From: an uncultured Candidatus Saccharibacteria bacterium
Lineage (GTDB): Bacteria > Patescibacteriota > Minisyncoccia > Phycocordibacterales > Phycocordibacteraceae
NCBI GenBank assembly: GCA_964446735.1
Contig: CAYUQB010000002.1
Span: 18,516-82,515, forward strand
Direction of reading: 5' to 3'
DNA: 64,000 bases
The notes under the pieces: generated by a model
The model's database searches: none
Told to the model about the DNA's origin: nothing
What the model saw: the letters and a program-made list of their open reading frames with translations, nothing else
Position numbers and translations under genes: made by a program
Shown here: piece after piece, positions 5,025 through 52,375 of the stretch
Layout: each line of letters opens with the position of its first letter
Numbering within the stretch: the first letter of the stretch is position 1

Positions 5025-6689
5025 ATGCAGAGCTCAACCACCACCCAAGAAGCGCTCACAGCGCTTCCACGCATGACGCTCACCCCGCGTCAGTTATTTG
5101 ACCTTGAACAGCTCCTGGTCGGAGGATTCGCTCCGCTCACCGGCTTCCTGGGTAAGGAAGACTACGAGAGTGTTGTTGAGACCATGCATCTTGCGTCTGG
5201 GGAGCTGTGGCCGATGCCTATTGTGCTCGATGTGAGTACAGGGCATGGCCGTTCCATCGGGGATCGTGTCATCCTGTGCGACCCGTACGGAAACCCGATC
5301 GCATTCATGACGATCGAAAGTATCTACGAACCTGATAAGCAGAAAGAAGTGCTCAAGGTGTATGGAACGGATAACCCTGAGCATCCGGGGGTGCGGTATG
5401 TGCTGCAGGAAGCAGGCAATATATATCTCGGGGGGCCGGCTGAACTCATCAACCGCTCGCCCATGCATGATTTCAAAGAACTGCGTCGCACTCCGGAGGA
5501 GCTCAAACAATTCATTGCAGAACGGGGATGGGATAAGGTGGTTGCGTTCCAAACTCGTAATCCGATCCATCGTGCGCACTTCGAACTTATCTCACGCGCT
5601 GCCAGCGCACTCGGTGCAGCCGTACTCCTTCATCCGGTGGTAGGTCTCACCAAAGAAGGTGATATCGATTACATCTCTCGCGTGCGGGGATACAAACGAC
5701 TTCATGCCGCTCGTCTCTCGGATAACGGTGTACTCTCGCTGCTTCCGCTTGCGATGCGCATGGCAGGTCCGCGAGAAGCGGTATGGCACGCGCTCGTGCG
5801 CAAGAACTACGGCGCCACCCATTTCATTGTTGGACGCGATCATGCGGGTCCTGGCTCCGATTCATCTGGGAAAGCGTTTTATTCAGCGTATGAAGCCCAG
5901 GAACTTGCTAAATCCCTCGAAAATGAAATCGGTATTGGCATCGTACCCATCCATGAAATGAGTTATGTCGAGAGCGAGGGACGATATCTCTCACCCGAGG
6001 AGCTCACGCCTGAGCACGAAGTAAAGAGCATTTCGGGCACCGAGTTTCGTCGCATGCTTCGCAGTGAAGAACCGATACCGGAGTGGTTTGCATTTCCCGA
6101 AGTCATTGAGGAGCTCCGTGCCGCCATGCGTAAAGAAAAGCGTCGGGGTGCCGTCGTGTTCTTCACGGGACTTTCGGGAGCCGGGAAATCGACGATTGCA
6201 CACATTGTGTACAACCGACTCCTTGAGGAACAGGATCGTCCGGTGACGTACTTGGATGGGGATATTATTCGTCAGCATCTCTCGAAGGGTCTTGGATTTT
6301 CAAAAGACGATCGCATGACCAATATCGAGCGCATCGGATTTGTTGCGAGTGAGATCGCTAAGCATGGAGGCATTGCGGTGTGTGCGGCTATTGCACCCTA
6401 TCGCGAAAGTCGAGAGCGCAATCGACGACTCATTTCACAAGCGGGTACCTATATCGAAGTGTTCGTCGATACACCTATCGAGATCTGTGAAGAACGTGAT
6501 CCGAAGGGGTTGTATAAGAAAGCGAAGACGGGATCACTCGCTGGGTTTACCGGTGTCGATGATCCGTATGAACCACCTACGGATGCAGAGCTCGTTCTCG
6601 ATACCACTACCGAAAGCGCAGAAGAGGCAGCGATGCGGGTGCTGGCGTACCTCAAGGAGCGCGGGTTCTACGAGCACTATACGGACTAA
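5025..6689 (+). CDS. sat/cysC: bifunctional sulfate adenylyltransferase / adenylylsulfate kinase (PAPS synthase)
   Basis: N-terminal ATP-sulfurylase motifs QTRNPIHRAHFEL and GRDHAGPG. C-terminal APS-kinase motifs GLSGAGKSTIA and LDGDIIRQ. 554 aa. Confidence 0.9.
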   Translation: MQSSTTTQEALTALPRMTLTPRQLFDLEQLLVGGFAPLTGFLGKEDYESVVETMHLASGELWPMPIVLDVSTGHGRSIGDRVILCDPYGNPIAFMTIESIYEPDKQKEVLKVYGTDNPEHPGVRYVLQEAGNIYLGGPAELINRSPMHDFKELRRTPEELKQFIAERGWDKVVAFQTRNPIHRAHFELISRAASALGAAVLLHPVVGLTKEGDIDYISRVRGYKRLHAARLSDNGVLSLLPLAMRMAGPREAVWHALVRKNYGATHFIVGRDHAGPGSDSSGKAFYSAYEAQELAKSLENEIGIGIVPIHEMSYVESEGRYLSPEELTPEHEVKSISGTEFRRMLRSEEPIPEWFAFPEVIEELRAAMRKEKRRGAVVFFTGLSGAGKSTIAHIVYNRLLEEQDRPVTYLDGDIIRQHLSKGLGFSKDDRMTNIERIGFVASEIAKHGGIAVCAAIAPYRESRERNRRLISQAGTYIEVFVDTPIEICEERDPKGLYKKAKTGSLAGFTGVDDPYEPPTDAELVLDTTTESAEEAAMRVLAYLKERGFYEHYTD

Positions 6690-20416: not shown

Positions 20417-21466
20417 ATGACGGTGCGGCAGGAGGTACCCCTTGCCCAACTAACTACCTTTAAGGTAGGTGGCCCCGCTCGGTTCGTGTGTGCAATCGAG
20501 TCGGAGACTGACCTCATATCCGCGCTCACGTTCGTCCGGGAGCAGAATCTACCTTTTGTAATCCTGGGTGAAGGAAGCAATATTCTCCCTCCTGATGAGG
20601 GGTATTCAGGCGTAATTCTTCTGATGCGGATTCCTGGCATAACGTTCGAGGATCAGGGCGAGTATGTCCGTGTTGCGGCTGGAGCCGGAGTTGTCTGGGA
20701 TGATCTGGTGTCTGCATGTGCTGACCGAGGTCTCTGGGGAATTGAGAACCTTGCCGGTATTCCAGGAACTGTCGGAGCTGCACCGGTACAAAATATTGGA
20801 GCATACGGTGCCGAAGTGAAGAACGTTATTGAAAAAGTCATCGCGTACGACGTACGCGAGAATCAGTACCGCACACTGCAAAATGCCGAGTGCGGATTTT
20901 CATACCGAGACAGTCGCTTCAAGCATGAACCACAGCTCATTATCGTGACTGTGACATTCCTCCTTGCTAAGACAGGAGTGCCGCAGGTCGAGTACAAAGA
21001 TCTGATTGCAGTGCGTGAGACGGGGGGGGATCTTTCTGCGCCTGGAGCCATTGGCTCAGCGGTACGGGAGATACGGGCACGGAAATTCCCAGATCTTAGA
21101 GAGTTCGGAACCGCAGGATCCTTTTTCAAGAATCCCATTCTCACTCAAGAGAAATACGATCAGCTTTCTGCTACCTATGCCGATATCGCAGGGCCCTTAG
21201 GCGGCATTCCACGGTATCCCATGCCTGGTGCAATCAAAATACCGCTCGCCTTTATTTTGGATAAGGTGCTTGGAATGCGTGGTCATCGTCGTGGCCCGAC
21301 ATTTCTTTTTGGTAATCAACCGCTGGTACTCGTTGCTGATCAAGAAGCAACCGCACGTGATATCGATGCACTTGCACGCGAAATTGAAATGCGAGTACAT
21401 GATGCAACGGGCATCACCATTGAACGTGAAGTGCGTAATCTTACATCACACGAGAGCACTGCGTAA
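20417..21466 (+). CDS. murB: UDP-N-acetylenolpyruvoylglucosamine reductase
   Basis: FAD-binding LTTFKVGGPARFV...ILGEGSNIL, NLAGIPGTVGAAPVQNIGAYG, and C-terminal MurB domain. Start ATG immediately after upstream TAA. Confidence 0.85.
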   Translation: MTVRQEVPLAQLTTFKVGGPARFVCAIESETDLISALTFVREQNLPFVILGEGSNILPPDEGYSGVILLMRIPGITFEDQGEYVRVAAGAGVVWDDLVSACADRGLWGIENLAGIPGTVGAAPVQNIGAYGAEVKNVIEKVIAYDVRENQYRTLQNAECGFSYRDSRFKHEPQLIIVTVTFLLAKTGVPQVEYKDLIAVRETGGDLSAPGAIGSAVREIRARKFPDLREFGTAGSFFKNPILTQEKYDQLSATYADIAGPLGGIPRYPMPGAIKIPLAFILDKVLGMRGHRRGPTFLFGNQPLVLVADQEATARDIDALAREIEMRVHDATGITIEREVRNLTSHESTA

Positions 21467-21636
21467 AATTCTTTGAAAGAATTTCTTTGTACGTTATCCA
21501 CACATTAAAAAAAATTCACACAAAAATAATTTTCGCGCGCAATAATATCCATAGAACACATTCGCGCGAAAAATTCTTTGCAGAAAATTTCGTACGAGTG
21601 GGTCGACAATATCAGTCATAGCACTACACTAAATCT
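21467..21636 (+). promoter_or_regulatory. AT-rich leader with palindromes (AATTCTTTGAAAGAATT; TTCGCGCGCAA/TTCGCGCGAAA) upstream of the micro-ORF/secA
   Basis: 170-bp roughly 30% GC stretch between murB and the lysine-rich micro-ORF. Perfect 17-bp palindrome at 21468-21484 and two related TTCGCGCG boxes. Confidence 0.3.
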
Positions 21637-21750
21637 ATGGCAGCAAAGAAGAAGGCCGCTAAGAAGTCGACAAAGCGCAAGACCGCAAAGAAGACGACGA
21701 AGAAGGCCGCAAAGAAGACCACCAAGCGCAAGACCGCAAAGCGCAAGTAA
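21637..21750 (+). CDS. 37-aa lysine-rich histone H1-like / nucleoid-associated small protein
   Basis: ATG 21637; encodes MAAKKKAAKKSTKRKTAKKTTKKAAKKTTKRKTAKRK (KKAA/TAKK repeats). Followed by a strong terminator. Not in the >=60-aa ORF track. Confidence 0.55.
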   Translation: MAAKKKAAKKSTKRKTAKKTTKKAAKKTTKRKTAKRK

Positions 21751-21764
21751 TCTTCAAAACGCGC

Positions 21765-21792
21765 AAAGCCTCCCCTCCGGGAGGCTTTTGCG
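21765..21792 (+). terminator. rho-independent terminator
   Basis: AAAGCCTCCC-CTCC-GGGAGGCTTT 10-bp GC-rich stem then TTTGCGTTAT. Confidence 0.7.
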
Positions 21793-21807
21793 TTATAGTG
21801 CCTATCT

Positions 21808-24333
21808 ATGGCCGGCCTACTCGGCAACCTATTTTCAAAGAACCAATCCGCAGCCTTTTTACGGGGTGCGGCTCCTGTCGTGTCTCGAGCGGGGGCACTC
21901 TCGGATGAGCTGGAGGCGCTTTCGGAGACCGAGCTGCGCGCACGACTCGATAGGGTTCGGGAGCGCACGGGTGGGCGCCCAAAGGCAGATGATGATATTG
22001 CAGAGGTGTTCGCAATTGTCCGCGAAGCTGCTCGGCGAACGCTCGGCGAACGGCATTACGATGTTCAGCTTATTGGCGGACTTGCGCTTGCAAAAGGAAG
22101 GATCGCCGAGATGCGCACCGGAGAAGGAAAGACCTTGGTTGCTACCTTGGCCGTTACCTTGCGGGCGCTTGCCCGGGAGGGAGTGCACGTGGTTACGGTG
22201 AACGACTATCTTGCACGACGCGACGGCGCATGGATGGGACAGGTGTACGGATATCTCGGGCTTTCACTGGGTGTCGTCACTTCGAGTGGTTCCTATATAT
22301 ACGATCCATCACATGTTCCGTCTGAAGAAGACAGCGCACGTGACGAGACGGGAAGTTTCAAGGTCTTCTATGATTACCTTCGTCCGGCATCAAAGCATGA
22401 AGCGTATGCCGCTGATATTACCTATGCGACGAATAACGAGCTTGGGTTCGACTACCTACGCGATAACACCGCGTATGATCCTTCTCAGATCGTTCAGCGT
22501 GGCCATCACTACGCTATTGTGGACGAGATCGACTCAATATTGATCGACGAGGCACGTACGCCACTTATCATTTCAGGACCTGCCGAGGATGCGGAGCAGC
22601 TCTACGAGCGGTTTGCGGGAATAGCCGCAACGCTTTCAGTTGGCGAGGACTACACTGTAGATGAAAAACAGAAGGCGGTGCAGCTTTCACCCATCGGTAT
22701 TGAAAAGGCAGAGCAGGCGCTTGGTATCGAGAATCTATATACCGAAGGTGGAATGAAGTACGCGCACCACCTCGAAACGGCGGTACGCGCCCAGGCGCTT
22801 TTCCATAAAGACAAAGAATACGTGGTGCGGGATGGTGAGATTTTGATTGTTGATGAATTCACGGGACGACTCCAGCCTGGGCGGCGCTGGAGCGAAGGAC
22901 TCCATCAAGCCATTGAGGCGAAAGAGGGAGTGCCGATTCAGAAGGAGACCCGCACGTACGCTTCAGTGACCTTCCAGAACTATTTCCGTATGTATGAAGG
23001 CCTCGCTGGTATGACGGGTACAGGTGTTTCTTCGGAAGAGGAATTCTATACCGTGTATGGTCTCGATGTGGTTGTGGTACCGACGAATCGCCCGGTGATG
23101 CGTATCGATCATGACGATCTCATTTTCCAGACCATTGGAGGTAAATATGCCGCACTCACTCGTGCCGTAGCAGCGCTCCATGAGAAAGGTCAACCAGTAC
23201 TGGTTGGCACTGTCTCCATTGAAGATAACGATGTCGTGTCCGAACATTTCCGAGCGGCAGGCATCCCGCATGAAGTATTGAACGCAAAGAATCATGAACG
23301 CGAGGGCGAGATCATTGCACAGGCGGGACGCGTTGGACGGGTGACTGTGGCCACCAACCTTGCTGGTCGTGGCGTCGACATTAAACTCGGTGGGGCACCG
23401 GTCGTAGCAGAGGAATATGAAAAGGTTAAGGCACGCGGCGGCCTTGCGGTTATCGGTACTGAGCGACACGAAGCGCGGCGCATTGATAACCAGCTACGCG
23501 GACGCTCTGGCCGACAAGGAGATCCCGGCGAGACCCAATTCTACGTCTCTTTGGAAGACAAGCTCATGCGTGTGTTCGCCAGCGACCTCATCAAGAACGT
23601 CATGGGCTCTTTCAAGATTCCTGAGGATGAGCCGATTGCAAGCGGACTCATCACGAGATCATTGGAAACCGCCCAAAAGCGCATCGAGGGATTCAATTTT
23701 GATTCTCGCAAACAAGTGCTTGCGTATGACGACGTACTCAATACCCAGCGTCTTGCAGTCTATCGCGACCGACGTACCGCACTTCTTGGTTCAGAAGAAG
23801 AGCTCACGGCTCGGGTTGAAGAGATGGTGGCTGGAGATCCTGAAGCCGAACAAGCACTGCGCGACAAACGTGATGCGTTCGGCCCAGAACAATTCGCACA
23901 AATCCTGCGCCGACTGCTCCTCCAAGTCACTGATACGTTCTGGCTTGAACACCTGGAGACGATGGAATATCTGCGACGCTCGGTATCACTTCGTGCATAT
24001 GGTCAACGTGATCCATTGATTGAATACCGTCGCGAAGGCCTCGCTCGATTCAATGGCATGCAAGAGGGTATTGCTGCAGCAGTCCGTGAGGCGTTGCCAC
24101 GCATTGTACCTGCAGACGATGCGCGCATCCGCGCGGAAGAAGAGCGAGTACGTCGCCAGCTGCTTGCGGCAACCGAGGGTGAGACCAGTTCGATACAGGC
24201 ACCTATCAAGAAAGAAGGGAAGGTGTACGGACGTAATGATGAGGTCACGATCCGGAAAGGCGAAGAGACTCAGACGCTCAAGTATAAAAAGGCTGAACCC
24301 TTGCTCGCGCAAGGCTGGTCCCTCATCGATTAG
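21808..24333 (+). CDS. secA: preprotein translocase ATPase SecA
   Basis: 841 aa. LIGGLALAKGRIAEMRTGEGKTLVATLA (DEAD-motor Walker A region), IVDEIDSILIDEARTPLIISG, GTERHEARRIDNQLRGRSGRQGDPG. Confidence 0.95.
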   Translation: MAGLLGNLFSKNQSAAFLRGAAPVVSRAGALSDELEALSETELRARLDRVRERTGGRPKADDDIAEVFAIVREAARRTLGERHYDVQLIGGLALAKGRIAEMRTGEGKTLVATLAVTLRALAREGVHVVTVNDYLARRDGAWMGQVYGYLGLSLGVVTSSGSYIYDPSHVPSEEDSARDETGSFKVFYDYLRPASKHEAYAADITYATNNELGFDYLRDNTAYDPSQIVQRGHHYAIVDEIDSILIDEARTPLIISGPAEDAEQLYERFAGIAATLSVGEDYTVDEKQKAVQLSPIGIEKAEQALGIENLYTEGGMKYAHHLETAVRAQALFHKDKEYVVRDGEILIVDEFTGRLQPGRRWSEGLHQAIEAKEGVPIQKETRTYASVTFQNYFRMYEGLAGMTGTGVSSEEEFYTVYGLDVVVVPTNRPVMRIDHDDLIFQTIGGKYAALTRAVAALHEKGQPVLVGTVSIEDNDVVSEHFRAAGIPHEVLNAKNHEREGEIIAQAGRVGRVTVATNLAGRGVDIKLGGAPVVAEEYEKVKARGGLAVIGTERHEARRIDNQLRGRSGRQGDPGETQFYVSLEDKLMRVFASDLIKNVMGSFKIPEDEPIASGLITRSLETAQKRIEGFNFDSRKQVLAYDDVLNTQRLAVYRDRRTALLGSEEELTARVEEMVAGDPEAEQALRDKRDAFGPEQFAQILRRLLLQVTDTFWLEHLETMEYLRRSVSLRAYGQRDPLIEYRREGLARFNGMQEGIAAAVREALPRIVPADDARIRAEEERVRRQLLAATEGETSSIQAPIKKEGKVYGRNDEVTIRKGEETQTLKYKKAEPLLAQGWSLID

Positions 24334-27688: not shown

Positions 27689-28352
27689 CATTTATGATAG
27701 ATATCATTCTGAATCATCTTGAACACCAGAGTGAAGTAGAGAATCTACGGATCTAAGGATTTAAATCGTGAATCTAGTGCCAAAGTAGGCTGATTTAGCG
27801 TATCTCGTCAGTAATCGCTCAGAGTTGCGCTTTTCTTACATGTGGCAAATATCTCTCTCCATGGCGCAAAAGTGCATCGAGGGATGTTAAGTCTGGCGGG
27901 AGCAGGCTTAGGATGCATCGGAATGATCGAACAGAAACATAAAGCCATGGAAAATATTGTGCGCACTTATAACGAAGAAAATACAAAGCATTTATTAGTC
28001 TTTTCGGATGTTCGAATTGCCGAGTCTACGATTTAATCAAGGCGTGTAATCTCTTGGGTAGCTCCTCATTTGAGCAGAAGTGCTCGTAATTTCGCAAGAA
28101 ATCCTTTTAGAAAATATACAAAAGCGCAAATTAGGATCTCAAAGCTTCTCCAAATCAAATATGTGCATCATTTGCGTCAATCTTTCGAGTCTAGAGCGCA
28201 TTTCTAGCCCTGTTCAGGCATATATTCGCTGTGGAGTTGGTGATTGAAAGATTAATTTCCATAGCGATCGAAATCAGTCGCCTGATTGAACTTTCTACGA
28301 AAAATTTCTTGAGAAAACTTTCATTATTTATCCACAAAGGAAAGCGCGTCAG

Positions 28353-28390
28353 TATCCGAAATAGGAGATAGAATTTACTTAATTCGGATA
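28353..28390 (+). promoter_or_regulatory. inverted repeat spanning the 5' leader/RBS region of the giant gene
   Basis: TATCCGAA-N22-TTCGGATA enclosing AGGAG, ending 6 nt before ATG 28397. Confidence 0.3.
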
Positions 28391-28396
28391 TCCGAC

Positions 28397-31300
28397 ATGT
28401 CCCTTCCACTCGATAAAAATTTCATCCCAAATAAGGTAGCGAGTGAATTGTCCGGATACAACTCGGACTACATCGCTCGACTTTGTCGTGAAGGAAAAAT
28501 CGAGGGTACGCAAATCGGTCGCGCATGGTTCGTAAATCGCGAGTCGCTAGAAAAGTTCATCAAGCAACAGGACACGCGCAAGAAGGAAATCGCGCGTGAA
28601 CTCTCTGCAGCTCGCGAACGCGAGTATTCTGCACGTCAGAATGCCGCAACTGAAGTAAAAGAAGTCAAGGAAGTACGCATTTCTACGGAGACTTCGATTC
28701 CAAAGGCCAAGCTCATCCCTTCGCAGATTGCACCGCTGCAGGCAGTAATTCACCGACCAGTACATGTGCGCGTAAAAGCTCGCAGTCCGCGCCTTTCGGA
28801 GGTTCACCCAACACTTCGCCCAGGATTCGCACTCGCTCTTACTGCACTCGTCTTGATGATCTCTGTATACGCTGCGGAGAGCGGACTCGTAAACAATTTT
28901 GCCTCACGTGTCATTACGTCAGCAATGCGCACTCACGCTGATGCGCCTGAACTTCCGTTGCGAAGCGCGTTTGCCATTCGTGGCATTGGTGAACATCTTG
29001 CACTTGGGACTTCACATCTCGTCACCGGCGCGCCAAAAGTGTATGAACGTGGCCTCATGGCACTGGTGCGGACACCTGCAGATTCTGCTGCAGCTGTTGC
29101 AACGGTCACGACAACTCCGGAACACGGAATCGGTGAGCGCGTTGCGCTTACGACCTACCGTGGCATCACTCGCTTTTTCAGTAACGCTACCGACCGGCTC
29201 GCAGTCTTCTTTGGATTTAAAAGTCCGAACATCGCGGTGCTTCCATTCGAGGCTGCCAGCGCACTTCATCCCTCGACCAATCTTCCCGCACCAACATCAT
29301 CTGGTGAGTATCGACCCACGACGCAAGGTATTACCACCGTCAACTACCTCACGGGAGTTTCGAGTGAGTACGTCGATAGCTACGTCTCCTCGTATGTAAC
29401 CAATGCACTTCGTGGTGTACGCGAGCAGATCGGACGTGATGTGCTGGATAGTAATGCGGTAAAGCGCAGCCGTAGTTCATCGAGCGGAAGCTCTTCAGGT
29501 GGAGCAGCAACCTCGGTGAATGGCGCGGTGGTAGCAACCTCGCTCACGCTCTCTGGTATCACTGGTTCTACGCAGTGTCTCCAAGTTGATACTTCAGGCG
29601 TCGTGTCCGGGACAGGATCCGCCTGTGGTGCAGGCGGCAGCGGAATCACTGGGCTTAAGGGTCAGTATTCAAGTACACAGACAGGCGCAACTCAGACCTT
29701 CGCGACGTCGAGTGATACCAACCTCACACTTACAATCACTTCTTCAGGAGACACGCATACTTTCACGCCGGGTTGGACTGGCGTACTTTCAGTAGCACGG
29801 GGCGGGCTCGGGCTCTCTGCCGTTACTGCCAACGGACTCCTTATCGGAAATTCTGCAGGCACTGGGTACACAAGTGTTGCAACCAGCTCGCTCGGCCTTT
29901 CAACTTCCGACATCAGCGAAGGCAGCAATCTCTACTACACGACTGCACGCTTTGCTGCATCGCTCGCTGGTACTACCACTGACGCACTTGCTGAAGGAGC
30001 GATCAATCGGTACTACACTGACGCACGCGCACGCGCAGCCTACAGTACGACTGCAACTGGTCTCTCATACAGCAGTGCCAGTGGCGTACTCTCGCTCTCG
30101 AGCGGCTACAACATTCCACTCACCGCATCGACCACGAACTGGAATTCTTTCTACGACACACCCTCGACGCGTATCACTGCTGGTACCAATCTTTCCTGGA
30201 GCGGCAACACACTCAACGGTCCGGCTGACTCAACCATTCGAGGACTATTCTCAGGCACCTACCCAGTTAGCTACGACAGTGGCACGGGAGCCTTCAGTCT
30301 TGCGTTTGGTACCACTACTTCAAACACCTGGGCAGGCACACAGACGTTCACCAACACTCCAGTTCTCGGTACGCTCACCGGACTCGTAGGATCAAACAAC
30401 GGTAGCCTCTATCAAATCGCCACCTCTTCCAACTTCGTTACATCGATCGCGCAAAGTTTCGGTTCTGCACAGACCGGTGCCGTCACACTCGCAACAAGTT
30501 CTGCCGCGACCTGGAATGGAGTGACCTTCACTAACTCGATCACTAACTCTGGCGGCACGTTCACCTTCACGCCGGCACTCTCTGGTACGCTCGCGGTCGC
30601 AGGTGGCGGCACCGCCACCACCACCTTCTACAACGGTGGCGTGGTCTTCTCTGACGGCACCAAACTCACCCAAGCAGCCGCCGCAAGCAACTTCTTCTGG
30701 GACAACACCAACAACCGTCTTGGTCTTGGCACCTCTTCTCCATGGGGTCAGCTCTCGATCAATCCGAATGGCATTAGTGGACCAGCGTTTGCAATTGGCT
30801 CTTCTACCGACACCCTCTTCTCCATTACCAGTGGCGGACACATAACAATCGGCACATCCACACCCGCATCAACCAACGGAATAACCCTCACGACAACAGC
30901 AGGTACCGCAGCCCCGATCCTGTACATGTATCGAAACGATAGTTCAGTAACCGCAAGCGAGTCCCTGGGTGCAATTTACTTCGACAGTAACGATGGCCCG
31001 GTGAGTACAAACGATGCTGCGGTAGCTATCCTGGCCCAAGCCGCAGAAGTGCATGGAAGCACCGCGAAAGGTGGACAACTCATTTTCCAGACTAAATCGA
31101 TTGGAACAGGTCCTAATAGTAGTTCCGACGAACGTTTCCGAATTACCGCAAGTAATACCAGCGGTTTCAGTACCTCATCTCCGTATGCGACGCTCTCAAT
31201 TCACACGAACAAGGATGTAACGAATAGAACCCTTTTTGCAATCGGCTCATCGACAGCTTCCGCGACCTCAACGCTCTTTAGTATTACGAACACCGGTTCG

Positions 31301-34300
31301 ACTACTCTCTTCCAACTCCCAAGTTCGGTACTGACTACGAATGAGAATGGCACCATTGTCGGTACCACATCGGTTGGCATTACTTACGGCGGTACCGGCA
31401 TCACTAGCTACACTTCCGGTGATCTTCTCTACGCTAACAGCAGCGGCATCCTCGCAAAGCTTGGAATTGGTTCGGCCGGTCAGGTGCTCAAGGTCACCGG
31501 TGGACTACCTGTATGGGGTGCCGATCTTACGACTGGCGGCGGCGGCGGTGCCGGCGCGTGGGCAACAACGAGTGATAGTCTTGCTGTCTACCCGACCGAC
31601 ACTTCAGACGTCATCATTGTCGGCAACAGCGCGACTAGTACGCTCACCAGTATTTTCGAAGTGCATGGCAAGTCGTACTTCTCAAATTTCCTCGGTATCG
31701 GCACGACGAACCCTTCGACACAACTCTCGGTACAAGGTGATGCGCTCTTCTCGGGTAATCTCTCACTTGCAAACCTTACTGCAACTGGAACGATCTCAAC
31801 CACAAATCTCACGGTAGGTACCCTTAACGGACCACTTCATGCGAACAATGGCGTCGTTTCAGCAACCACGTCTATTGGTGTGCTTTACGGCGGTACAGGT
31901 CTTACGACCGCTCCATCGTACGGACAGCTTTTACTCGGTAACAGCAGTAGTGGCTATACACTCACCGCAACTTCTTCGTTGGGACTCCAGTCGGTTCTCC
32001 AGGGTACCCAAGGTCAGGTCGCATATTTCTCAGACACAAACACTGCGGTCGGTACCTCAAGCATTTTCATCGGAACAAATACGAATGTCGGTATCGGTTC
32101 CTCGTCGCCAAGCGCGAGACTAAGTATTCTCGGTGCAGATGCTGCATCTTCGGGAGCGACTGCACCCCATGCGCTGTATGTACGGGGTGGTACTGGTGGG
32201 TCGACTAGCGGGTTCGGTGGCCCCATAACACTTGTTGGAGGCGCGGCAGGGGTGGCGACCTCAAATGGAGGTACGGTGACCATTGTCTCTGGCTCGTCAT
32301 TTGCAGGACTGCCTGGGGCAGAAATCGAACTGACCGGTTCAGCGAATAGCGCTGGTGGTGGTCTCACGTTCACCGGTGGGAATGGCAGTATCCTTGGAGG
32401 CGGGTTCACATTCACTAGCGGAGATGGTCAGTCGGGCGGTTCATACTACTTCACCTCAGGCGATGGCTCCTTGAATGGTGGTGACTTCAACTTCACAAGT
32501 GGTGCCGCGACTTCTTCCGGAAGCGGTGGACAATTCACTTTCACAGGCGGTGTCGCAAGTTCTACAACTGCAAACGCAACGGGCGGTGGCTTTACCGTCA
32601 CCGGTGGAGCTGCAAGTTCTACGATCTCGACTGTCCACGGTGGTTCCATTCAACTGACCGGCGGCTCGGGTGGTACCGGTGCACTTACGGTAGGAAGTGG
32701 AGGGAATATTGTCCTAAACGGAGGTGCTGCGGGTGTCGCAGGCGGTTCGGTAGGGAACGTGCTTCTCGCTGGGCTACGTGGCAAGGTGGGTATCGGTTCA
32801 AGTAGTCCCTATGCGCTCCTCTCACTGCATGCTTCCAGCACCGCGACCACACCAATGTTGTTTGCAATTAGTTCTTCGACCTCTACGTTTGCGACGTCAT
32901 CGCTGTTCTCCATCAACAATGTCGGTTCTACCACCCTCTTCCAGCTTCCAAGTTCGGTGCTTACCACAAATCAGAATGGAACTATCGTCGGCACCACTTC
33001 AATTGGTGTTACGTACGGTGGTACTGGTCTCACGAGTGGCCCATCGTACGGCCAGTTGCTTGTAGGTAACGCGTCCGCTGGGTATTCACTCACTGCAACG
33101 AGTTCACTCGGACTGGTTACATCAGTGAACGCATCCGGTGGCACTACCGGTCTTTCATTCTCGGGCGGCCCCATCACCTCGTCAGGCACACTTACTCTTT
33201 CTGGGACACTTGGACTTGCGAACGGCGGCACCGCCACCACCACCTTCTACTCCGGTGGCGTGGTCTTCTCCGACGGTGCTCGCCTCACCCAAGCTTCCTC
33301 CACCAGTGACTTCTTCTGGGACTCAACTAACAAGCGTCTTGGTCTTGGCACGTCTACTCCATGGGGCCAACTCTCCATTAACCCCAATGGTATTAGTGGA
33401 CCAGCGTTTGCAATTGGCAGTACCACTAACACGAGCTTTGTGGTGACGAATGGGGGATATGTGGGGATTGGAAGCGCGGTGCCGACCAACGCGCTTACGG
33501 TTGTTGCGAGCTCAACTTCTGTGACGAGCACTTTCCCGTTTGACGACACACAGCTTGAAATTGCAGCAACCTCTTCAAGTTCCGGTTCACTCAATATTGG
33601 TTTGAATTCGAGACAATCACGCTACTACATAGTTGGTAACTCGGGCAATCTGACGTCCAACGATATGTATATTGGTGTTGACGGATCAAGTGATGGATTC
33701 GGAAAGGTTCACATCATCACCGGGTTTGCAGGTGGATCGGTACCACGTATTACTGCCACACGTGATGGTCAGGTGGGTATTGGTACGACTTCTCCCTACG
33801 CAAAATTCGCTGTTCACGCCGCTAATGCTGAAACCAATCGTGTCCTCTTTGCTATTGGTTCCTCAACCGCTTCCGCAACTACCACTCTCTTCTCTGTAAA
33901 CAACATCGGCTCCACAACGCTCTTCCAGCTTCCGAGTTCGGTACTGACTACGAATGAGAATGGCACGATTGTCGGTACCACATCGGTGGGCGTAACGTAC
34001 GGCGGTACGGGACTTTCAACAGCACCCGCCTATGGCCAGCTTCTGGTGGGTAACTCTAGCGGTGGGTATACCCTTACGGCAACCAGCTCACTTGGGCTTG
34101 GTACTGGTAATGGCACCGTCACTTCTGTAGATGCTTCAGGTGGCACTACCGGTCTTTCATTCTCGGGCGGCCCCATCACCTCGTCAGGCACACTTACTCT
34201 TTCTGGGACACTTGGACTTGCGAACGGCGGCACCGCCACCACCACCTTCTACTCCGGTGGCGTGGTCTTCTCCGACGGTGCTCGCCTCACGCAGGCATCT

Positions 34301-37300
34301 TCCACCGGTGACTTCTTCTGGGACTCAACCAACAAACGCCTGGGACTCGGTACCTCAACACCGTTTGCGAAACTTTCTGTCAATCAAAACACGAGCGGTC
34401 CAAGCACGATACCGGCCTTTGTCGTGGGTGCATCTGATTCAACGAAGTTTATCGTCACAGCAAGTGGAAATGTGGGTGTTGGAACTTCTTCCGCTGCGTA
34501 TACACTCGATGTAGGCGGGTTCGCAAACGTCGATAAATTCTCGGGCTACAAACAGGATACGTTCACCATCCTCACTGCATCGTCCACATCACTTTCAACA
34601 TTGGTCGGTATTAATGCAGGCGCGTCACTCACTCAAGGCGCTCGCTATGCAACCGTCCTTGGCTACGGCGCACTCCAGAACACAACGTCCGGCACCTATA
34701 ACACCGCAGTTGGCTATCAAACATTAAATGCGAACTCGACCGGTGCGCAGAACACTGCACTTGGTGCATTCGCACTCACAAATAATTTCACCGGCGCAGA
34801 CAATGTCGCACTTGGCTATGGTGCGAGCTACTTCAATGCATATGCGACGCGCACCGTTGCTATCGGTAGCGAAGCAGGTGAGGGCGTCGGCAACTATGCA
34901 AACCAGGGTGGAGTACTCGTAGGCTACAAGTCTGGCTTCAACCTGACCGATGGTTCCAACTACAATACACTTCTTGGCTACCAATCAGGCTTTGGTATCA
35001 CCACGGGTGCCAACAACATCATCATCGGTGCAGACTCTGATGGGAGTGGTGGAAACTCAAATCTCACCACCGGATCGGGAAATATTCAGATCGGGTACAA
35101 TATCTCGCTCCCAAGCGCGACCGCAAGCAATCAACTCAACATCGGAAATCTTATCTACGGTACCGGAGTGAGTGGCACGGCTTTTGTACCATCGACAGGT
35201 CGTATCGGTATCGCTTCTACGTCACCGTTCGCAAAGCTCTCAGTACATGCGAACAATGGAGATACTAACCCCGCGCTGTTTGCGATAGGTTCTTCAACAG
35301 CAAGTGCGACAACCACTCATTTCCTGGTCACGCGTACCGGCGAAGTCGGCATCGGTACTACTTCTCCGAGCGCGCAGCTTGCACTTTCCGGTGTATCAGG
35401 AACAACCGCAGCAGCACCGGATTTCCTAGGCCTGTTTGGAGGCACAGGAGGCGCGCCAGTCACCGGTGACGCTGGCGCTGGTTCGAGTGGCAGGATTGGT
35501 GCAGGTGCAGGTGGAGCGACAGCTAACGGGAATGGTGGGGCAGGCGGCTCGCTCACCTTCGCTGCCGGTACGGGCGGTGCGTCGTCTCAAACAACCGGTA
35601 TCTCCGGCGCAGGCGGTTCACTTAGCCTTTCGGCCGGTAACGGCGGTGATGGCAGTGAACTGGTGTCGACTCCTGGTAACGGCGGTGCGATTACCATTAC
35701 TGCTGGTTCTGCTGGAGGAAATGGAGCAGCATCTGGCGGTAGTGTGACTATCAATCCGGGTGCAAAGGGTACTACGGGGAGTGATGGAAACGTTCTCATC
35801 GCAACACTTCGTGGGAAAACCGGTATTGGTACTACTTCACCGTACGCAAAGCTCTCCATCCACTCAAATAATGGCGATACCAATAGGACGCTTTTTGCTA
35901 TCGGTTCTTCAACGGCTTCTGCCACGACCACACTCTTCAGTATTACGAACACTGGTGACGCAACACTTCTAGGTACTTCTACTGCTGCAGGTGGTTCCTT
36001 CACGAGACTGACAGTTGGTTCTGATTACTTCACTGATCTTACGGGCACTGGCCTTGCTCTTTCTGGAAGCGCACTTACCCTCGACACAGGAAATGCCAAC
36101 TCTTGGACCGGTACTCAAACGTTTAACACGGTGACCATCAATACTGGATATGTCTTCACCGTTGGAACACTGAATGGTCCTCTGCACGCCAACAACGGAG
36201 TTGTGGCGGCGACAACCTCTATCGGCGTTACGTACGGTGGTACAGGCCTCACGACTGCACCGAGTTACGGTCAAATTCTTGTGGGTAACGCGTCCTCCGG
36301 CTATACCCTCACCGCAACCTCATCACTTGGCCTCCCGACTGGTTCGGGTGCAGCAGGACGTGTCGCGTTCTGGGATGGTACGGGCAGTCTGTCCTCAAAT
36401 GCCAATTTCACTTTCTCCTCGACTAACAGTCAGTTCTCAATTCCAAATAATGGGTGGTATGCAATTGGTGGCAACCTCCTCGGATATGCTTCATCCACAA
36501 ATCAAGCGACGATCTTCGGTCTCGGTGCTGGCGGCAATAACGCAACCACAACTGGAGCCGGAAGTAATCTGACGGCAGTGGGATTCAATGCGCTTAATGC
36601 CATGACGACTGGAGCGAACAACACGGCGGTCGGTTCACTTGCGCTTAGAAGTGCCACAACTGGCGGTGCGAATACGGCGGTCGGTGCGAGTGCGCTCAGT
36701 GCACTTACTACGGGTGGCTTCAACACCGCAGTTGGCTACCTCGCGGGCACCAGCGTAACAACCGGAGCCGGCAACTCGATACTTGGTCACGATGCCGCAG
36801 CCTCACTCACTGTTGGTTGGAATAACACACTCATTGGTCAGTATGCTGGGTACACCATCACGACCGGGTCAGGTAACACCGTGCTTGGCGGTGTCGAAGA
36901 TACAGGAATAAGTAACCTTACGACAGGTGACAACAACATTGCCATTGGACTCAATATTCTGTTCGCGGACGGTACGGCGGATAACCAACTTAACATTGGT
37001 AACTTCATCTTCGGCACCATACCCGCCACAACGACAAACAGTTCACTTCAACTGCCGAAAACCGGCAAACTCGGTATCGCCACCTCTTCTCCGTACGCCA
37101 AACTTTCCATTCACGCGAATAACGGATCAACTGATACCACCCTCTTTGCGATCGGTTCTTCGACCGCAAGTGCTACCTCGACACTCTTTTCCGTTAGTAA
37201 TTCCGGCCAGCTCTCTTCGAATCTCTCGGGAACAACAACACTCTTGCGGGTCGCAGGTCGGGAATTCATCAAGGCGGATACCGCATCACTCAACCTCGCA

Positions 37301-40300
37301 CTCGGCTTTGATCCGCTTCGAGCGCTTACGACCGGAAGCGGGAACATAGCTATCGGTGAGAATGCTGGGTATGGAATTACCACCGGCACGTATAACACCA
37401 GCATCGGATACGGAACACAGAATCAAAACGGTCATTATAATGTGGCGCTCGGATACCAGACCGGCGGAGCTGGCAATAGAGCCGTGGCAGTCGGGTATAA
37501 CGCCTATTCGGATGGACAAGGTGGTATATCAATAGGTGCTGGTGCGAACGCGTTTGGAAGTTCAACTATTGCTGTCGGTTACGGGGCATACGCCAACAAC
37601 ACAGACGGTATTGCACTCGGTAGTGACGTGTTTTCATACGGAACCGCTGCGATCGTGATCGGTGCCTCTGCTTCAAGTGACTCGGGCGCCTCGAGCACTA
37701 TCGCTATCGGTTACAACGCATATGGGGGTGGCACAATTTCTAACACAGTCATTGGCGACACCGCTGGTTTCAACATAGCAGGAAGACGCAATCTTCTTAT
37801 CGGACCGACTGCGTTCGATCCCAATGGTGCTTCAGACGGTGGATTGAGTATTGGCAATCTCATTTTCGGTACACTTCCTGCCACGACCACGGTTGCCTCA
37901 CTACCGCTCACGGGCGCAATCGGTGTTGCTACCACTTCTCCGTATGCAACCCTTTCAGTTCACGCAAACAGCGGCTCAGTAAACACTACGCTCTTCGCGA
38001 TCGGTTCTTCGACCGCGAGTGCCACCTCGACTCTCTTCTCCATTAACAATATCGGCTCCACCACACTCTTCCGTCTCCCAAGTTCAGTCCTTACAACGAA
38101 TGAGAACGGCACAATCGTTGGCACCACATCTGTTGGTGTCACCTATGGCGGTACCGGCCTGGCGACGGCTCCTTCGTACGGTCAACTTCTCCTTGGAAAC
38201 GCATCAAGTGGGTATACACTCACGGCAACGTCCTCTCTCGGTATCGCTATCAGTGATACTACTGGTACGCTCAGTCTTGCTCGTGGCGGCACCGCCACCA
38301 CCACCTTCTACAACGGTGGCGTGGTCTTCTCTGACGGCACCAAACTCACCCAAGCAGCCGCCGCAAGCAACTTCTTCTGGGACAACACGAACAACCGTCT
38401 AGGGCTGGGTACCTCAAGTCCATGGGGCCAGCTCTCCATTAACCCCAATGGCATTAGTGGACCGGCGTTTGCCATCGGGAGTACCACGAGCACAAGTTTT
38501 GTGATTACTAACGCAGGATATGTGGGCATCGGGACGGCAACTCCACAAACCAGCCTCGATATTGATGGAGGTAATGTCCGTATAACGAATCTCTCGGGAA
38601 GTGTACAAAACCTGCTTTCACTCAATAACACGTCAGCGGGAACTGCGGCTGGAAACGCAATTGTATTTAACGGGCCCTCGAGTGTTCAGTATGGAAAAGT
38701 TGAGGTGGCCGCAGATAGTGCAACCAGTCAAACCTATCTTGCGCTCACGGTCCGTGGTGCGAGCGCTGCGTATGAAGCACTTCGTGCGGTGGGTTCGAGC
38801 GGGAGTATTGGTATCGGTACCACCACTCCGAAGTGGAAACTCACTGTTTCCACTTCGACTGCACCGCAACTCACCTTGACTGATGGCTCTGCCACTAATG
38901 CGCCCTTTAACTTCCGTGCCATTAACAACCTTTTGTACTTCTCGACCTCTTCGCCAACTACCTACGCTACCTCAACTCCGTTCTTAAGCTTCGACAGCTC
39001 TACTGCTTCGACCAGTATTCTGAGACTTGATGTGACGGGCACTGGAACCTCTACCTTTGCCAACGGTCTCAATATCGCCAATGGTTGCTATGCCGTGAAC
39101 GGTGTTTGCTTGGTCGGTACGTTCACCAACACGCTCGCTTCAGGCGGCACCGCCACCACCACCTTCTACAACGGTGGCGTGGTCTTCTCTGACGGCACCA
39201 AACTCACCCAAGCAGCCGCCGCAAGCAACTTCTTCTGGGACAACACGAACAACCGTCTCGGACTTGGAACATCGACACCATTTGGTCAGCTCTCCATCGA
39301 TTCGAACGGAATTACTGGTCCTGCGTTTGTTATTGGTTCATCAACCGCCACTCATCTGTTAGTTGAGAATAGTGGAAGAGTGGGTGTTGGTACTACCTCG
39401 CCTGCATCCGCGTATGGATTTAATGTCGGCACAAACTCGTATTTTGGAGCCACTACAACATTCGCTGGAGGTGCTGCTATCGGTGCATTTACCTCGGGGG
39501 GTAAGACAGGTACCTGGATTAATCTTCCAACGACTGGTCCGTCTGGTATTGGTACTGGCGGAGCAGGAAGTAACCCGTTTGTCGCATATGCTGCGTCAGC
39601 CACCGACTGGTTCAACGGTTCAATAATAGGTGACGCTGTGTATCGTAACGCAAACGGAACTCGTATTCTCATGGGCATTAGCAACAATAATGGTACTGCT
39701 CAACCACAGATTATTATTCAAGGTAACGCCTCATCTACCTGGCAAACCAGTTTCGGTACGACTTCACCATGGGGCATGGTCTCGATTGGTTCCCATGGGA
39801 TTGGAGACAAACCGGCGTTTGTCATTGGTTCGTCAACCGCGACTAATTTGATCGTCACCAATAGTGGACGAGTAGGTATTGGCACTAGCTCTCCTACCAG
39901 CATGCTCGCAGTTGGGGGAAACGTGACAATTAGTACTGCTGCAGCAAATAGCGGATTGCTGACCATCTACTCAGAGGACACAGGGTCCCTGTCCAATATG
40001 CAGGGTATCGTCGTTGCTGATCGTCAAAATGCCTACGGATCCTGGCAGACTCCTAGCGGGCTCGATGGAGTTCAGATCGGCGGCGGCGGCGAAGTAACCG
40101 CCTGGAATCAAGACTTCTTTATCAACTACTACTCCACCGGAGATGTGCGGCTTGCTCGCGGCGGCGGAGATGTGTTTGTAGGAAGCTCTCCACCGACAGC
40201 TCGGTTAAGCGTTAAGGGAAGCGCGGGTAGTACGACACCGGTGTTCCTCGTTTCTTCCTCCACGAACGCGAATCTATTTAATGTGCAATCGACTGGATTC

Positions 40301-45572: not shown

Positions 45573-45610
45573 AAGCTTGTTAAATAAGGGTTTTCTGAAG
45601 AGTCTCGCTC

Positions 45611-45629
45611 AAAAAGCGGGGCTTTTTTG
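45611..45629 (+). terminator. weak hairpin plus T-tract after gap
   Basis: AAAAAGC-GGG-GCTTTTTT. Confidence 0.35.
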
Positions 45630-45680
45630 CTACCTGCTTTTCACTCACCTAAAGGTCGAAATTATTAGCCAAGTTAACCA

Positions 45681-45875
45681 TTGTCCCGAAAGGGATCAGC
45701 CGGAGTACGACGGCAGATGCTAGCGATGGATCAGAAAAACCATGAGGAAGTATGTAATCGATGGAATGGAGATTTACTCAAGTCTCGATTTCCGGAGACG
45801 AAGAAAAAGCTTCTTGAGACGGCTATTCGATGTATTCGTAGGTCCAGTTATCCACAGGGTCAGACGAATCAATGA
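45681..45875 (+). CDS. hypothetical small protein (64 aa)
   Basis: ORF only; first ORF of the low-GC region. Confidence 0.25.
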   Translation: MSRKGSAGVRRQMLAMDQKNHEEVCNRWNGDLLKSRFPETKKKLLETAIRCIRRSSYPQGQTNQ

Positions 45876-46120
45876 AAGCTCTCAAAAGTACCCGATTAGT
45901 TACTTACCGTAGATCTGGGAAACCCGCCCTGATCCTTGAGGGTAAGTGGCTAACGGAACGATATCGATTGAAAGTTGGCGACGTGATCGATGTCGATTAT
46001 CAGCCAAAGGAAATTAGGATACGCAAAAATCACAAATTAAGTGTTGAGCGTAGAAAGTTTCTGGCGGAAGTCGCCGAGCTTCGTAGACAGCAAATCGAAG
46101 CGATAAAGAATAGGAATTAG
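45872..46120 (+). CDS. SymE-like / AbrB-fold (SpoVT-AbrB) small protein
   Basis: SGKPALILEGKWLTERYRLKVGDVIDVDYQPKEIRIRKN resembles the SymE toxin core (P-A-I-T-L-K-G-x-W-L-x-x-x-G-F..G..v.V....i.l). 82 aa, basic C-terminus. Confidence 0.4.
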   Translation: MKALKSTRLVTYRRSGKPALILEGKWLTERYRLKVGDVIDVDYQPKEIRIRKNHKLSVERRKFLAEVAELRRQQIEAIKNRN

Positions 46121-46235
46121 AAATGATTAATCACTTAAAAGTAGTAATTAAAAAATAAAAGACCCCCGAAGGGAGCCTTTCATCAACAGATACATCGTAT
46201 CAAAGACCCCTTTGGTGAGTCAATAGCTAAAAACT

Positions 46236-47423
46236 ATGACAACCACATTACAAAGAAACATGACACAAAACGCAACAGAAGAAAATTTCTTCACAGCGAT
46301 AGGAAACACTAAGCCCTTCTTCAAGGCAGCTTTTGAAGGAGAGCCAGGCACCGGCAAGAGCTGGAGTGCTGCATTGGTCGCTATCGGACTTCATAAGAAA
46401 ATCGGAAGTAAAAAGCCGGTTGTTCTTATCGATACCGAGAAAGCTGCGAAGTTTTTGGTCCCACTCTTTCAAGAGCATGGGATTGAAGCGATGGTGAGAG
46501 AAACGCATTCTCTCGCTGACTTGGTAACAGCTATGAGGCTCTGTACAGAAGGATATTCAGACATCATGGTGATCGATAGCATCACTCATATCTGGATGGA
46601 TTTCCAAGAGGCTTATAAGCGAAAGCTGAATAGGCAAAATTTCCAAATCCAAGACTGGATGGCAATCAAGTCTGATTGGAACAGAAATTTCTCTATCCCA
46701 TTGGTTCAGTCGCCTCTACACATTATCGCCACAGGGCGTGTGTCAGATCGAATGGAGCAAGAAATAGATGAAGATGGTCGAAAAGAGTTCACTAAGACTG
46801 GAGTAAAGATGCAGGCAGAAAAAAATGCTGCATACGAATTCGATGTCTTGGTTCTTATGGAACGCCATGAACTCATTGAGCGTAAAAAGCGTGAAGTTTG
46901 GAGACAGGCAACTGTTCTTAAGGGTCGAGGCAATCTACTTGATGGAAAGGTGTTTAAAAACCCTACATATGAGGACTTTGCACCGGCAATTGAAGCAGTT
47001 ATTAAGGATCCTGCATCTGCACGATTGAATCCAACTGAGCGTGATGCAGGTGAATTGATCCGCACAGAAGAAGATAAGCGTAAATGGGTGCTTGAAAGAA
47101 AGCGATGGCTTGAGGAGATAGAGGGATATCTTGTCTCAATTTGGCCAAGTACTGGCGCACAGGAAAAGAAAAACAAGACTGATGCGCTTGAGTATGCCTT
47201 CCAGACCCGAAGCTGGTCTGCAATTGAAGCAATGCGACCTGACGTCCTCGAGGACGGCTACGCACGAATTCAGGAGTTTGTTCAAAAGAAGATCGCTGAA
47301 ACTAAAGGCGAACTTCCTCCGGAACTGACACCTGAGCAGAAGTTCGAGAAGGATCTTAGAGATTCAAAGACAGATGAAAAGCCAAAGCGTTCTAACACTA
47401 AGGCTGTCAAAAGTGGCAAGTAA
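46236..47423 (+). CDS. phage AAA_24 / Sak4-like RecA-fold ATPase
   Basis: Walker A FEGEPGTGKSWSA, Walker B DIMVIDSITHIW, and the AAA_24 arrangement. Charged coiled C-terminal extension. Confidence 0.55.
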   Translation: MTTTLQRNMTQNATEENFFTAIGNTKPFFKAAFEGEPGTGKSWSAALVAIGLHKKIGSKKPVVLIDTEKAAKFLVPLFQEHGIEAMVRETHSLADLVTAMRLCTEGYSDIMVIDSITHIWMDFQEAYKRKLNRQNFQIQDWMAIKSDWNRNFSIPLVQSPLHIIATGRVSDRMEQEIDEDGRKEFTKTGVKMQAEKNAAYEFDVLVLMERHELIERKKREVWRQATVLKGRGNLLDGKVFKNPTYEDFAPAIEAVIKDPASARLNPTERDAGELIRTEEDKRKWVLERKRWLEEIEGYLVSIWPSTGAQEKKNKTDALEYAFQTRSWSAIEAMRPDVLEDGYARIQEFVQKKIAETKGELPPELTPEQKFEKDLRDSKTDEKPKRSNTKAVKSGK

Positions 47424-47467
47424 GTAGGTTAGCCACTGACTCAGTCCTCATCGCAGTGGCGTGAGGA

Positions 47468-48025
47468 TTGAGATCAGGGGCCAACCACCCCAACAACCCT
47501 ATGGATCAACCAAAAACCGACTTCATACCAAATAGCACTCAAATTCCAAATCTGGTCCTCGATTTTATCGTTCCTCGAATTTCAGAAGCGGAATCAAGAT
47601 GTCTTTTGTACATATGTCGTCGGACTTTTGGTTTTCATAAAGAATCTGATCGCATTAGTTTCTCTCAATTTATCGAAGGGATAAAAGATCGTAGGGGTAA
47701 TGTGCTTGATTATGGGACTGGCCTTTCAAGGCAATCAGTCGCTGCTGGCTTAAAGAATCTTGCGGCGGCCGGACTGGTCTTGGTGAGCAAAAGTAAGGGT
47801 GGAAATCTCTACAAAATAAACCTGCATATGGATGTGGATAAGGTAGTCAACTTAGTAGACCAGTCAAGAAGGTTGACCAAAAGTGGTCTAAAAAATAGAC
47901 CGAAATCGGTCTACCAAGTAGACACACAAAATCTAGGAAAAAAAGAGAAATCTAGTATTAGGGATCCTGTGAATAACTTATCCACAGAACTCAGCGAACT
48001 CACTAAAAAAATGACCATCAAATAG
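47468..48025 (+). CDS. putative phage replication initiation / winged-helix DNA-binding protein
   Basis: SEAESRCLLYICRRTFGFHKESDRISFSQFIEGI resembles the replisome-organiser/DnaD-like N-terminal HTH domain. Follows the ATPase. Confidence 0.35.
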   Translation: MRSGANHPNNPMDQPKTDFIPNSTQIPNLVLDFIVPRISEAESRCLLYICRRTFGFHKESDRISFSQFIEGIKDRRGNVLDYGTGLSRQSVAAGLKNLAAAGLVLVSKSKGGNLYKINLHMDVDKVVNLVDQSRRLTKSGLKNRPKSVYQVDTQNLGKKEKSSIRDPVNNLSTELSELTKKMTIK

Positions 48026-48028
48026 CTC

Positions 48029-48457: not shown

Positions 48458-48475
48458 TAACATTTCAATAAAGCC

Positions 48476-48877: not shown

Positions 48878-48880
48878 TTT

Positions 48881-52341: not shown

Positions 52342-52347
52342 AAGAAA

Positions 52348-52375
52348 AGTAATGCACTCAATTTTGCATTTTTTG
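52348..52375 (+). repeat. phage intergenic motif AGTAATGCA-N8-TGCATTTTTT, copy 1 (before portal gene)
   Basis: AGTAATGCACTCAATTTTGCATTTTTTG; small stem AATGCA/TGCATT plus T-tract. Recurs at 55596 and 60476. Confidence 0.6.

Follow-up and report, generated by a model that had tools for sequence, protein, structure and literature searches.

A conserved lysine-rich microprotein gene between murB and secA in Patescibacteria, with a DnaA-box-type motif at its promoter

Ahead of secA in an uncultured Candidatus Saccharibacteria bacterium lies a 37-codon, lysine-rich open reading frame (ORF), and it raises two questions: whether so short and repetitive a frame is a gene at all, and, if it is, what its product would do. 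We analysed a 64,000-nt stretch of contig CAYUQB010000002.1 that contains it (positions 18,516 to 82,515; hereafter the window, in whose numbering coordinates are given). Our comparisons indicate that the ORF is almost certainly a real gene, that it belongs to a family found in related Patescibacteria, and that it has a promoter module and a terminator of its own, the former with a motif of the DnaA-box type. The reading we favour for its product, at a probability of about one half, is a free-standing polycationic microprotein that binds nucleic acid, is probably associated with the nucleoid and is expressed under a link to DnaA.

The ORF translates to MAAKKKAAKKSTKRKTAKKTTKKAAKKTTKRKTAKRK, as had been proposed in an initial annotation of this DNA, made from the sequence alone, and its ATG is the earliest start codon downstream of the preceding in-frame stop. 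Under a criterion applied uniformly to all sequences (lysine plus arginine at least 45%; at most two acidic, aromatic or large hydrophobic residues), it is the sole ORF of its kind in the window. The peptide contains the motif AAKK three times and has no proline, and its gene carries an internal duplication of 51 nt at 91% identity (21648-21690 / 21699-21741). All 17 lysine codons are AAG, against a background of 63% in neighbouring genes (p = 6e-4). The gene sits in the 341-nt gap between murB and secA, with obg and gatB beyond secA and all genes on the forward strand:

20417-21466, forward strand: murB, a gene from the Pfam annotation of the window
21637-21750, forward strand: lysine-rich microprotein gene, 37 codons from ATG 21637 plus the stop TAA 21748-21750
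21808-24333, forward strand: secA, with Pfam SecA_DEAD and other domains

Since low complexity defeats homology tools on such sequences, relatives were retrieved by SecA synteny, and 160 secA loci (1.72 Mb of fetched sequence in all) were scanned for small ORFs rich in lysine or arginine. The closest SecA proteins, drawn from one-genome-per-species and metagenome collections, come mostly from metagenome-assembled genomes (MAGs) titled Patescibacteria or candidate phyla radiation (CPR), including Paceibacterota, Kaiserbacteria and Vogelbacteria, and their identity to the SecA of the window is 57-62% for genomes and reaches 83% among metagenome contigs. Lysine-dominated ORFs turned up in 28 loci; every one of these has a closely related SecA, and most bear the same Patescibacteria or CPR titles. 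Such a distribution goes far past what chance would give. The search for homologous lysine-rich micro-ORFs that the initial annotation had recommended was thus productive, and the lack of conservation that it said would speak against a gene was not what we saw. In 26 related loci the ORF lies between murB and secA, or between murB and an hpf-secA pair, on the secA strand, and in two loci, L026 and L116, it is present but located elsewhere. The conserved gene order is wzy-TPR, murB, the lysine-rich gene, (hpf), secA, obg and gatB. Such lysine-dominated ORFs were absent from all of the roughly 130 remaining secA loci scanned, where the few short arginine-rich ORFs that pass the criterion are of a different type.

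Members of the family are 16-114 aa long, with a median of 37, and consist of 43% lysine, 23% alanine, 15% arginine, 7% threonine, 5.5% proline and 5% valine; acidic, aromatic and large hydrophobic residues are essentially absent, with aspartate plus glutamate near zero. They begin with MA(A/P/T)KK(K/R) and end in a run of lysine and arginine, and beyond the N-terminus no position is fixed. Among the closest relatives the ORF measures 37, 41, 66, 22 and 45 aa where SecA is 100, 83, 76, 76 and 71% identical, respectively, from which the gene is evidently changing length fast, through gain and loss of repeats. In L008 a 1-nt shift in an A-run (5667-5875) breaks the ORF, which goes on in another frame (…KKAVKKVAKKKTVKKVAKKKVAKKKKK) to the terminator; the shift reflects either an assembly error in the homopolymer or slippage on poly-A.

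Codon comparison with L082, the closest informative relative, showed 27 identical codons, nine synonymous changes and a single non-synonymous one, together with an in-frame indel of 12 nt and a change of the stop from TAA to TAG; third positions hold 10 of the 11 changed bases, and both other sense-strand frames are interrupted by stops in L082. Moreover, the frame is kept across loci whose DNA no longer aligns, and the ATG is conserved. An antisense ORF with a hydrophobic translation (21659-21766, minus strand) was rejected, the substitutions being synonymous in the sense frame only; it exists as a by-product of a sense frame free of leucine. With position, frame and composition conserved in the 26 related loci, the proposal that 21637-21750 is a genuine gene is very strongly favoured, and the family appears conserved among Patescibacteria whose SecA is near that of the window (MAGs of the Paceibacteria type).

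The prediction that such a gene would easily be missed by annotation also proved correct. A near-identical Logan contig carries no gene call in the murB-secA gap, and none of 11 family members checked in a 15-billion-protein collection was present there. With the 41-aa orthologue as query, a word-index search followed by phmmer gave 2926 candidates, none at E <= 0.01, and a full phmmer search of 1.84 billion representatives gave no matches. Sequence searches of the PDB produced no significant match (the best was eS8, E = 0.5), and no Pfam or NCBIfam model matched the window peptide, even at E <= 10. The homology tools return nothing because lysine-rich sequences are of low complexity. A literature search found no description of a lysine-rich protein of this type in Patescibacteria.

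Upstream of the gene, the region between murB and the predicted transcription start has the following layout:

21494-21502, forward strand: TTATCCACA, which fits the DnaA-box consensus perfectly, with its centre at about -55 from the predicted transcription start
21503-21540, forward strand: A/T-rich tract with a weak -35-like CACACA (21517-21522) and a spacer that contains the left palindrome arm TTTTCGCGCG (21531-21540), from comparison of layouts
21541-21546, forward strand: -10 box AATAAT, with the predicted transcription start near 21553

Measured against the consensus TTATNCACA, the motif TTATCCACA lies 93-169 nt upstream of the lysine-rich ORF, always in the same orientation, as a perfect copy in 17 of 27 loci and with one mismatch in five more, and most of these 10-14 kb loci carry it once only. 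A promoter module common to about 20 loci runs from TTATCCACA through an A/T-rich stretch of 17-18 nt to TTGnnn and, after a further 17 nt, GATAAT. The window's clade retains this spacing overall, at about 3 nt shorter than in other clades, and its AATAAT, found in all five clade members, sits where about 15 other loci have GATAAT; CGCGCAATAAT is invariant in the window, L082, L098 and L083. From this layout we infer a transcription start near 21553. At the level of sequence, then, a DnaA-box motif occupies a conserved promoter-proximal position in about 20 loci, which suggests that the replication initiator controls the output of the gene.

In the window as a whole TTATCCACA occurs perfectly five times, versus about 0.5 expected, and no dnaA was seen among the window genes examined. 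An origin of replication (oriC) at this place was rejected: within 250 bp there are one perfect box and one box with one mismatch, which is not a cluster, and the cumulative GC skew climbs steadily through 21.5 kb with no switch. A second, leaderless promoter (TCGACA, 16 nt, TACACT; 21603-21630) is possible in the window and is not conserved in L082, L098 and L083.

Between the predicted start and the ATG lie three further elements:

21559-21600, forward strand: helix P1, whose 5' arm includes CGCGCGAAAA (21565-21574), from the leader fold and covariation
21601-21605, forward strand: GGTCG pentamer (the GGGTCGACA block), conserved in leaders
21615-21641, forward strand: helix P2, formed by GUCAUAG (21615-21621) with CUAUGGC (21635-21641), which would mask the start codon

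An AT-rich palindromic leader had been claimed for this gene, and the inverted repeats are indeed there, AAATTCTTT/AAAGAATTT at 21466-21484 and TTTTCGCGCG/CGCGCGAAAA at 21531-21540 and 21565-21574, as is the hairpin at 21559-21600. The 5' untranslated region (5'UTR) is about 83 nt long from the inferred start and folds at -21.8 kcal/mol (z = -3.1) into the two helices. Across the five closest sequences, eight of the 17 pairs of P1 have changed on both sides and 90.6% of cells are paired, compared with 32-54% when the partners are slid, so that P1 is, by its covariation, a 5'UTR helix. The seven pairs of P2 are formed in 97% of cells in the same five sequences, with G-U changes only and no covariation; this conservation is consistent with pairing, short of proof. 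The covariance model R1, made with the five closest leaders, recovers those five only, with L005 and L006 matched at the right place at E = 5-7, and because the model fails to reach other clades, the leader structure is clade-specific.

The arms of the TTTTCGCGCG/CGCGCGAAAA palindrome lie on either side of the -10 box and the transcription start, and its symmetry is kept through compensatory changes in L082 and L084; CGCGCGAAAA is at once the right arm of the palindrome and the 5' arm of P1, and the palindrome could act as an operator or else form an alternative pairing in the RNA. GGTCG is present in 22 of 27 leaders, 20-102 nt ahead of the ATG, and in L097, L092 and L086 it falls 6-8 nt past the -10 box, at the likely transcription start. 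As the loop of a conserved hairpin, GGTCG fitted weakly overall and in some loci only, with a mean z of -0.75 and the pentamer enclosed in 18 of 22 cases, versus 67% expected. Separately, the palindrome at the murB stop (21461-21484, GCGTAAAATTCTTTGAAAGAATTT) is a 79% direct copy of the P1 apex region (21566-21589, GCGAAAAATTCTTTGCAGAAAATT); one copy lies on each side of the promoter, at about -78 and +27, and the pair could serve as operators.

Two elements separate the gene from secA:

21758-21794, forward strand: intrinsic terminator hairpin with A and T runs on its flanks, from fold and stem search
21794-21799, forward strand: TATAGT, a -10-like box of secA's own, ending 8 nt before the secA ATG at 21808, at the end of the microprotein unit

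The 10-bp GC-stem terminator that had been reported here is a perfect stem, AAAGCCTCCC/GGGAGGCTTT at 21765-21788, and extends to a 16-bp hairpin with a dG of -25.9 kcal/mol (z = -5.45; none of 200 shuffles folds as well). With part of its T-run inside the stem, it escaped a simple terminator scan; the element nevertheless has the features of an intrinsic terminator, a stable GC-rich hairpin and a T-run after the stop, and an equivalent hairpin is found 1-38 nt past the stop in all 27 loci (dG -12.5 to -30.8). A box of the TGnTAnAAT type stands ahead of secA at the same place in related loci, and the secA mRNA is probably leaderless. Of 21 window genes, 7 have a TAnnnT box whose end falls 6-11 nt ahead of the ATG, compared with 5.5% of random positions, which suggests that leaderless mRNAs are common in this genome, secA included. 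Since a -10 box proper to secA follows the terminator, a role of the peptide as a secA leader is unlikely, and the description of the gene as lying upstream of secA holds as conserved gene order and not as co-transcription; by these sequence features the lysine-rich gene appears to be an independently transcribed unit. What the initial annotation had not noted is the -10 box of secA, the 5'UTR helix with its covariation, and the promoter that carries a motif of the DnaA-box type.

What would such a peptide do? Under the reading we favour, it would bind polyanionic nucleic acid by charge, without sequence specificity, and serve chiefly to neutralise the chromosome of these very small cells and compact it; association with the nucleoid is a plausible inference from its composition. 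A strong promoter (A/T tract, TTGnnn, GATAAT or AATAAT) would drive expression, with the DnaA-box 9-mer letting the replication initiator control output, while the structured 5'UTR, first P1 and then the AUG-masking P2, may add control of translation or mRNA stability, and the strong terminator would close the transcription unit. A more ambitious version is tentative, and we consider it possible rather than probable: that these genes form a family of replication-coupled DNA-compaction peptides of ultra-small bacteria, protamine-like or H1-tail-like, widespread in this branch of Patescibacteria, with a promoter hard-wired to DnaA and translation gated by the leader.

Comparison with known systems supports likeness in kind without membership. 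The C-terminal domain of linker histone H1 is about 40% lysine, plus alanine, proline and threonine, and this composition, shared with trypanosomatid H1 and protamines, resembles that of our family, which is likewise rich in lysine, alanine, proline and threonine and free of acidic residues, and in some relatives has turns of the (A/T)PKK or PAKK type; protamines and kinetoplastid H1 are, in addition, free-standing small polycations. Linker histones H1/H5, however, have a winged-helix globular domain (PF00538), which is not matched here and for which 37 aa are too few, and the present peptides are bacterial. The label "histone-H1-like" given in the initial annotation is therefore apt for composition, as a resemblance; it does not extend to the H1 globular domain, and every family cut-off was missed. 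The bacterial proteins with such tails differ in their architecture. In mycobacterial HbhA, the Lys-Pro-Ala-rich C-terminal domain (residues 161-199) is reported to be both required and enough for binding DNA independently of sequence, and the AKKA/PAKKA tail of mycobacterial HupB (also Hlp or MDP1) has been reported to bind DNA (PMC10665949), as have KPAA peptides of Pseudomonas AlgP (PMC9239181). The HupB and HbhA tails share with our peptide the AAKK/AKKA/PAKK-type repeats and the size range (about 39 aa for HbhA) but are carried on folded proteins, an HU fold and a coiled coil respectively, whereas the lysine-rich peptide is the tail alone; composition is shared, with no detectable homology. 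The KPAA domain of AlgP/PhaF is likewise an H1-tail-like disordered polycation of variable repeat number, but AlgP has a 124-aa helical N-terminal domain ahead of 154 aa of KPAA repeats, and our peptide has no second domain. The nucleoid-condensing chlamydial Hc2 and Burkholderia-type H1-like (NF038053) proteins have lysine/alanine-rich repeats, and theirs are the only models that give a signal with long members of the family; they are about 165-230 aa long, against our median of 37 aa, and do not match the window peptide. The family thus seems to work like proteins of the H1-tail type and to belong to none of them: H1-like lysine-rich bacterial proteins are already known, and the present one is distinct in being tail-only, micro-sized, confined to one lineage and equipped with a conserved promoter module with a DnaA-box motif.

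Several points weigh against binding to the chromosome as the main role. A polycation is equally suited to rRNA, mRNA, polyphosphate or anionic lipid, and the gene adjoins the ribosome-hibernation gene hpf in L016, L017 and L101. RplV, a ribosomal protein with AKKA repeats, bound DNA in vitro too (PMC10665949), so that DNA binding in vitro would not settle the partner in vivo. Because homology tools give nothing, the link to known nucleoid proteins is one of composition only: scores of the longest relatives do not exceed 20.9 bits with PF07382 (HC2; cut-off 40) and 15.1 bits with NF038052 (Hc2; cut-off 135), and the best relative has 18.8 bits with NF038053 (cut-off 80). AlphaFold2 models the window peptide as one long helix (pLDDT 91); this is uninformative and no evidence of a fold, since the proline-rich relatives cannot share such a helix. 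Finally, the other perfect copies of TTATCCACA in the window show no common promoter layout.

Among the alternatives, an association with ribosomes or RNA, as a loosely bound ribosomal or hibernation accessory peptide, an RNA chaperone or a neutraliser of rRNA charge, strikes us as unlikely, with a real if small chance of being right. An hpf/raiA-like gene stands between the lysine-rich gene and secA in L017 (5453-5809) and L101 (3306-3581), precedes the lysine-rich gene in L016 (5200-5421), and occupies the same slot directly before secA in relatives that lack the lysine-rich ORF (L009, L095, L012, L072 and others; hpf was also noted in L099, L103 and L105); it is not present in the window itself. 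Very small proteins rich in lysine and arginine are typical of ribosomes, as in bS22, bL37, eL41 and bTHX, and the best PDB hit, non-significant as it is, was to the ribosomal protein eS8. On the other hand, a ribosomal microprotein has a fixed length and a conserved sequence, and this family ranges sevenfold in length by repeat expansion, has nothing fixed past the N-terminus, lacks hydrophobic anchor residues and has a promoter and terminator of its own, apart from hpf. Poorer still are the prospects of another polyanion as partner, be it polyphosphate granules tethered as by AlgP/PhaF, anionic membrane lipids, or a general role as counter-ion in place of polyamines. The composition is all charge, with no specificity determinants, and AlgP, with its H1-like KPAA tail, localises to polyphosphate granules and spaces them (PMC9239181); the specificity of AlgP/PhaF comes, however, from folded N-terminal domains that our peptide does not have, ppk and other polyphosphate genes were not seen among the window genes examined, and the window peptide has no amphipathic or hydrophobic face for binding membranes.

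The remaining two alternatives concern what kind of element the ORF is, and the layout next to secA bears on the first of them. A regulatory upstream ORF, attenuating through Lys-tRNA or monitoring, in the manner of SecM, terminator read-through into secA, would fit the conserved position directly upstream of secA, with the ORF ending 7-14 nt before the hairpin and the hairpin 13 nt before the secA ATG; in E. coli, secM precedes secA as a small ORF immediately upstream on the same strand. Here, however, a terminator and a separate -10 box of secA, the latter seen in the window and in related loci, stand between the genes, hpf intervenes in L017 and L101, and the distance from the ORF to secA grows to 393 nt in L006 and about 830 nt in L084. 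The ORF also varies from 16 to 114 aa and has neither an arrest motif nor a signal peptide, no alternative anti-terminator pairing was seen, and the composition is under selection, unlike that of a short codon-run leader. We accordingly rejected a secA attenuator or SecM-type arrest peptide, and rate a leader function of any sort as very improbable. Scarcely credible, finally, is the idea that there is no gene here, and that the ORF is a chance frame in an AAG-rich repeat or a piece of a non-coding RNA. It is short and of low complexity, gene finders made no call, and no Shine-Dalgarno (SD) sequence precedes the window ORF; but this last is normal for this genome, because only 2 of 21 window genes (starts between 472 and 44550) have an SD-like 4-mer, and in L017 and L101 the ORF does carry GGAG, 8-12 nt ahead. 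The nine-to-one ratio of synonymous to non-synonymous changes, the in-frame indels, the conserved ATG and the frame kept in unalignable loci all speak for a coding sequence, and no Rfam family reached its gathering threshold in any part of the window, the hits in 21000-22300 being at chance level only.

If binding to the nucleoid is the right reading, the family offers a synthesisable candidate (a polycation of 16-114 aa) for DNA packaging in CPR/Patescibacteria, whose cells are hard to culture, and a regulatory hypothesis, built on the DnaA box and the structured leader, that is open to testing in vitro. The family is also an example of a systematic blind spot: on the near-identical contig the ORF went uncalled, the 11 members checked are absent from the protein collection, searches with hidden Markov models (HMMs) brought up nothing, and trypsin would reduce the sequence to very small pieces, invisible to trypsin-based proteomics. 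The TTATCCACA promoter module, together with the apparently leaderless, SD-free organisation of genes, provides annotation rules useful for such genomes.

Other parts of the window yielded observations of their own. No tRNA genes were found in the window. Its last part, 45600-64000, has a GC content of 40-48%, versus about 53% for the host, with all genes on the forward strand, and encodes AAA_24, a protein like phage replication protein O, a fusion of ParB_N with an N6/N4 DNA methylase, and an SU10-type portal; it looks like a phage integrated in a Patescibacteria genome. The replication-O-like gene contains perfect DnaA boxes at 47833 (minus strand) and 47978 (plus strand), and another is found near the junction, at 45848 (plus strand). 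The region 28328-43210, which has a strongly negative GC skew, holds a giant ORF of 4937 aa (28397-43210) with a perfect TTATCCACA 60 nt upstream and GATAGAAT about 20 nt ahead of its ATG. At the other end, 1-20416 is a surface-glycan cluster with two GT1 glycosyltransferases, a methyltransferase, a fused ATP-sulfurylase/APS kinase, NeuB (a sialic-acid-type synthase), a Polysacc_synt flippase and a Wzy_C-TPR protein.

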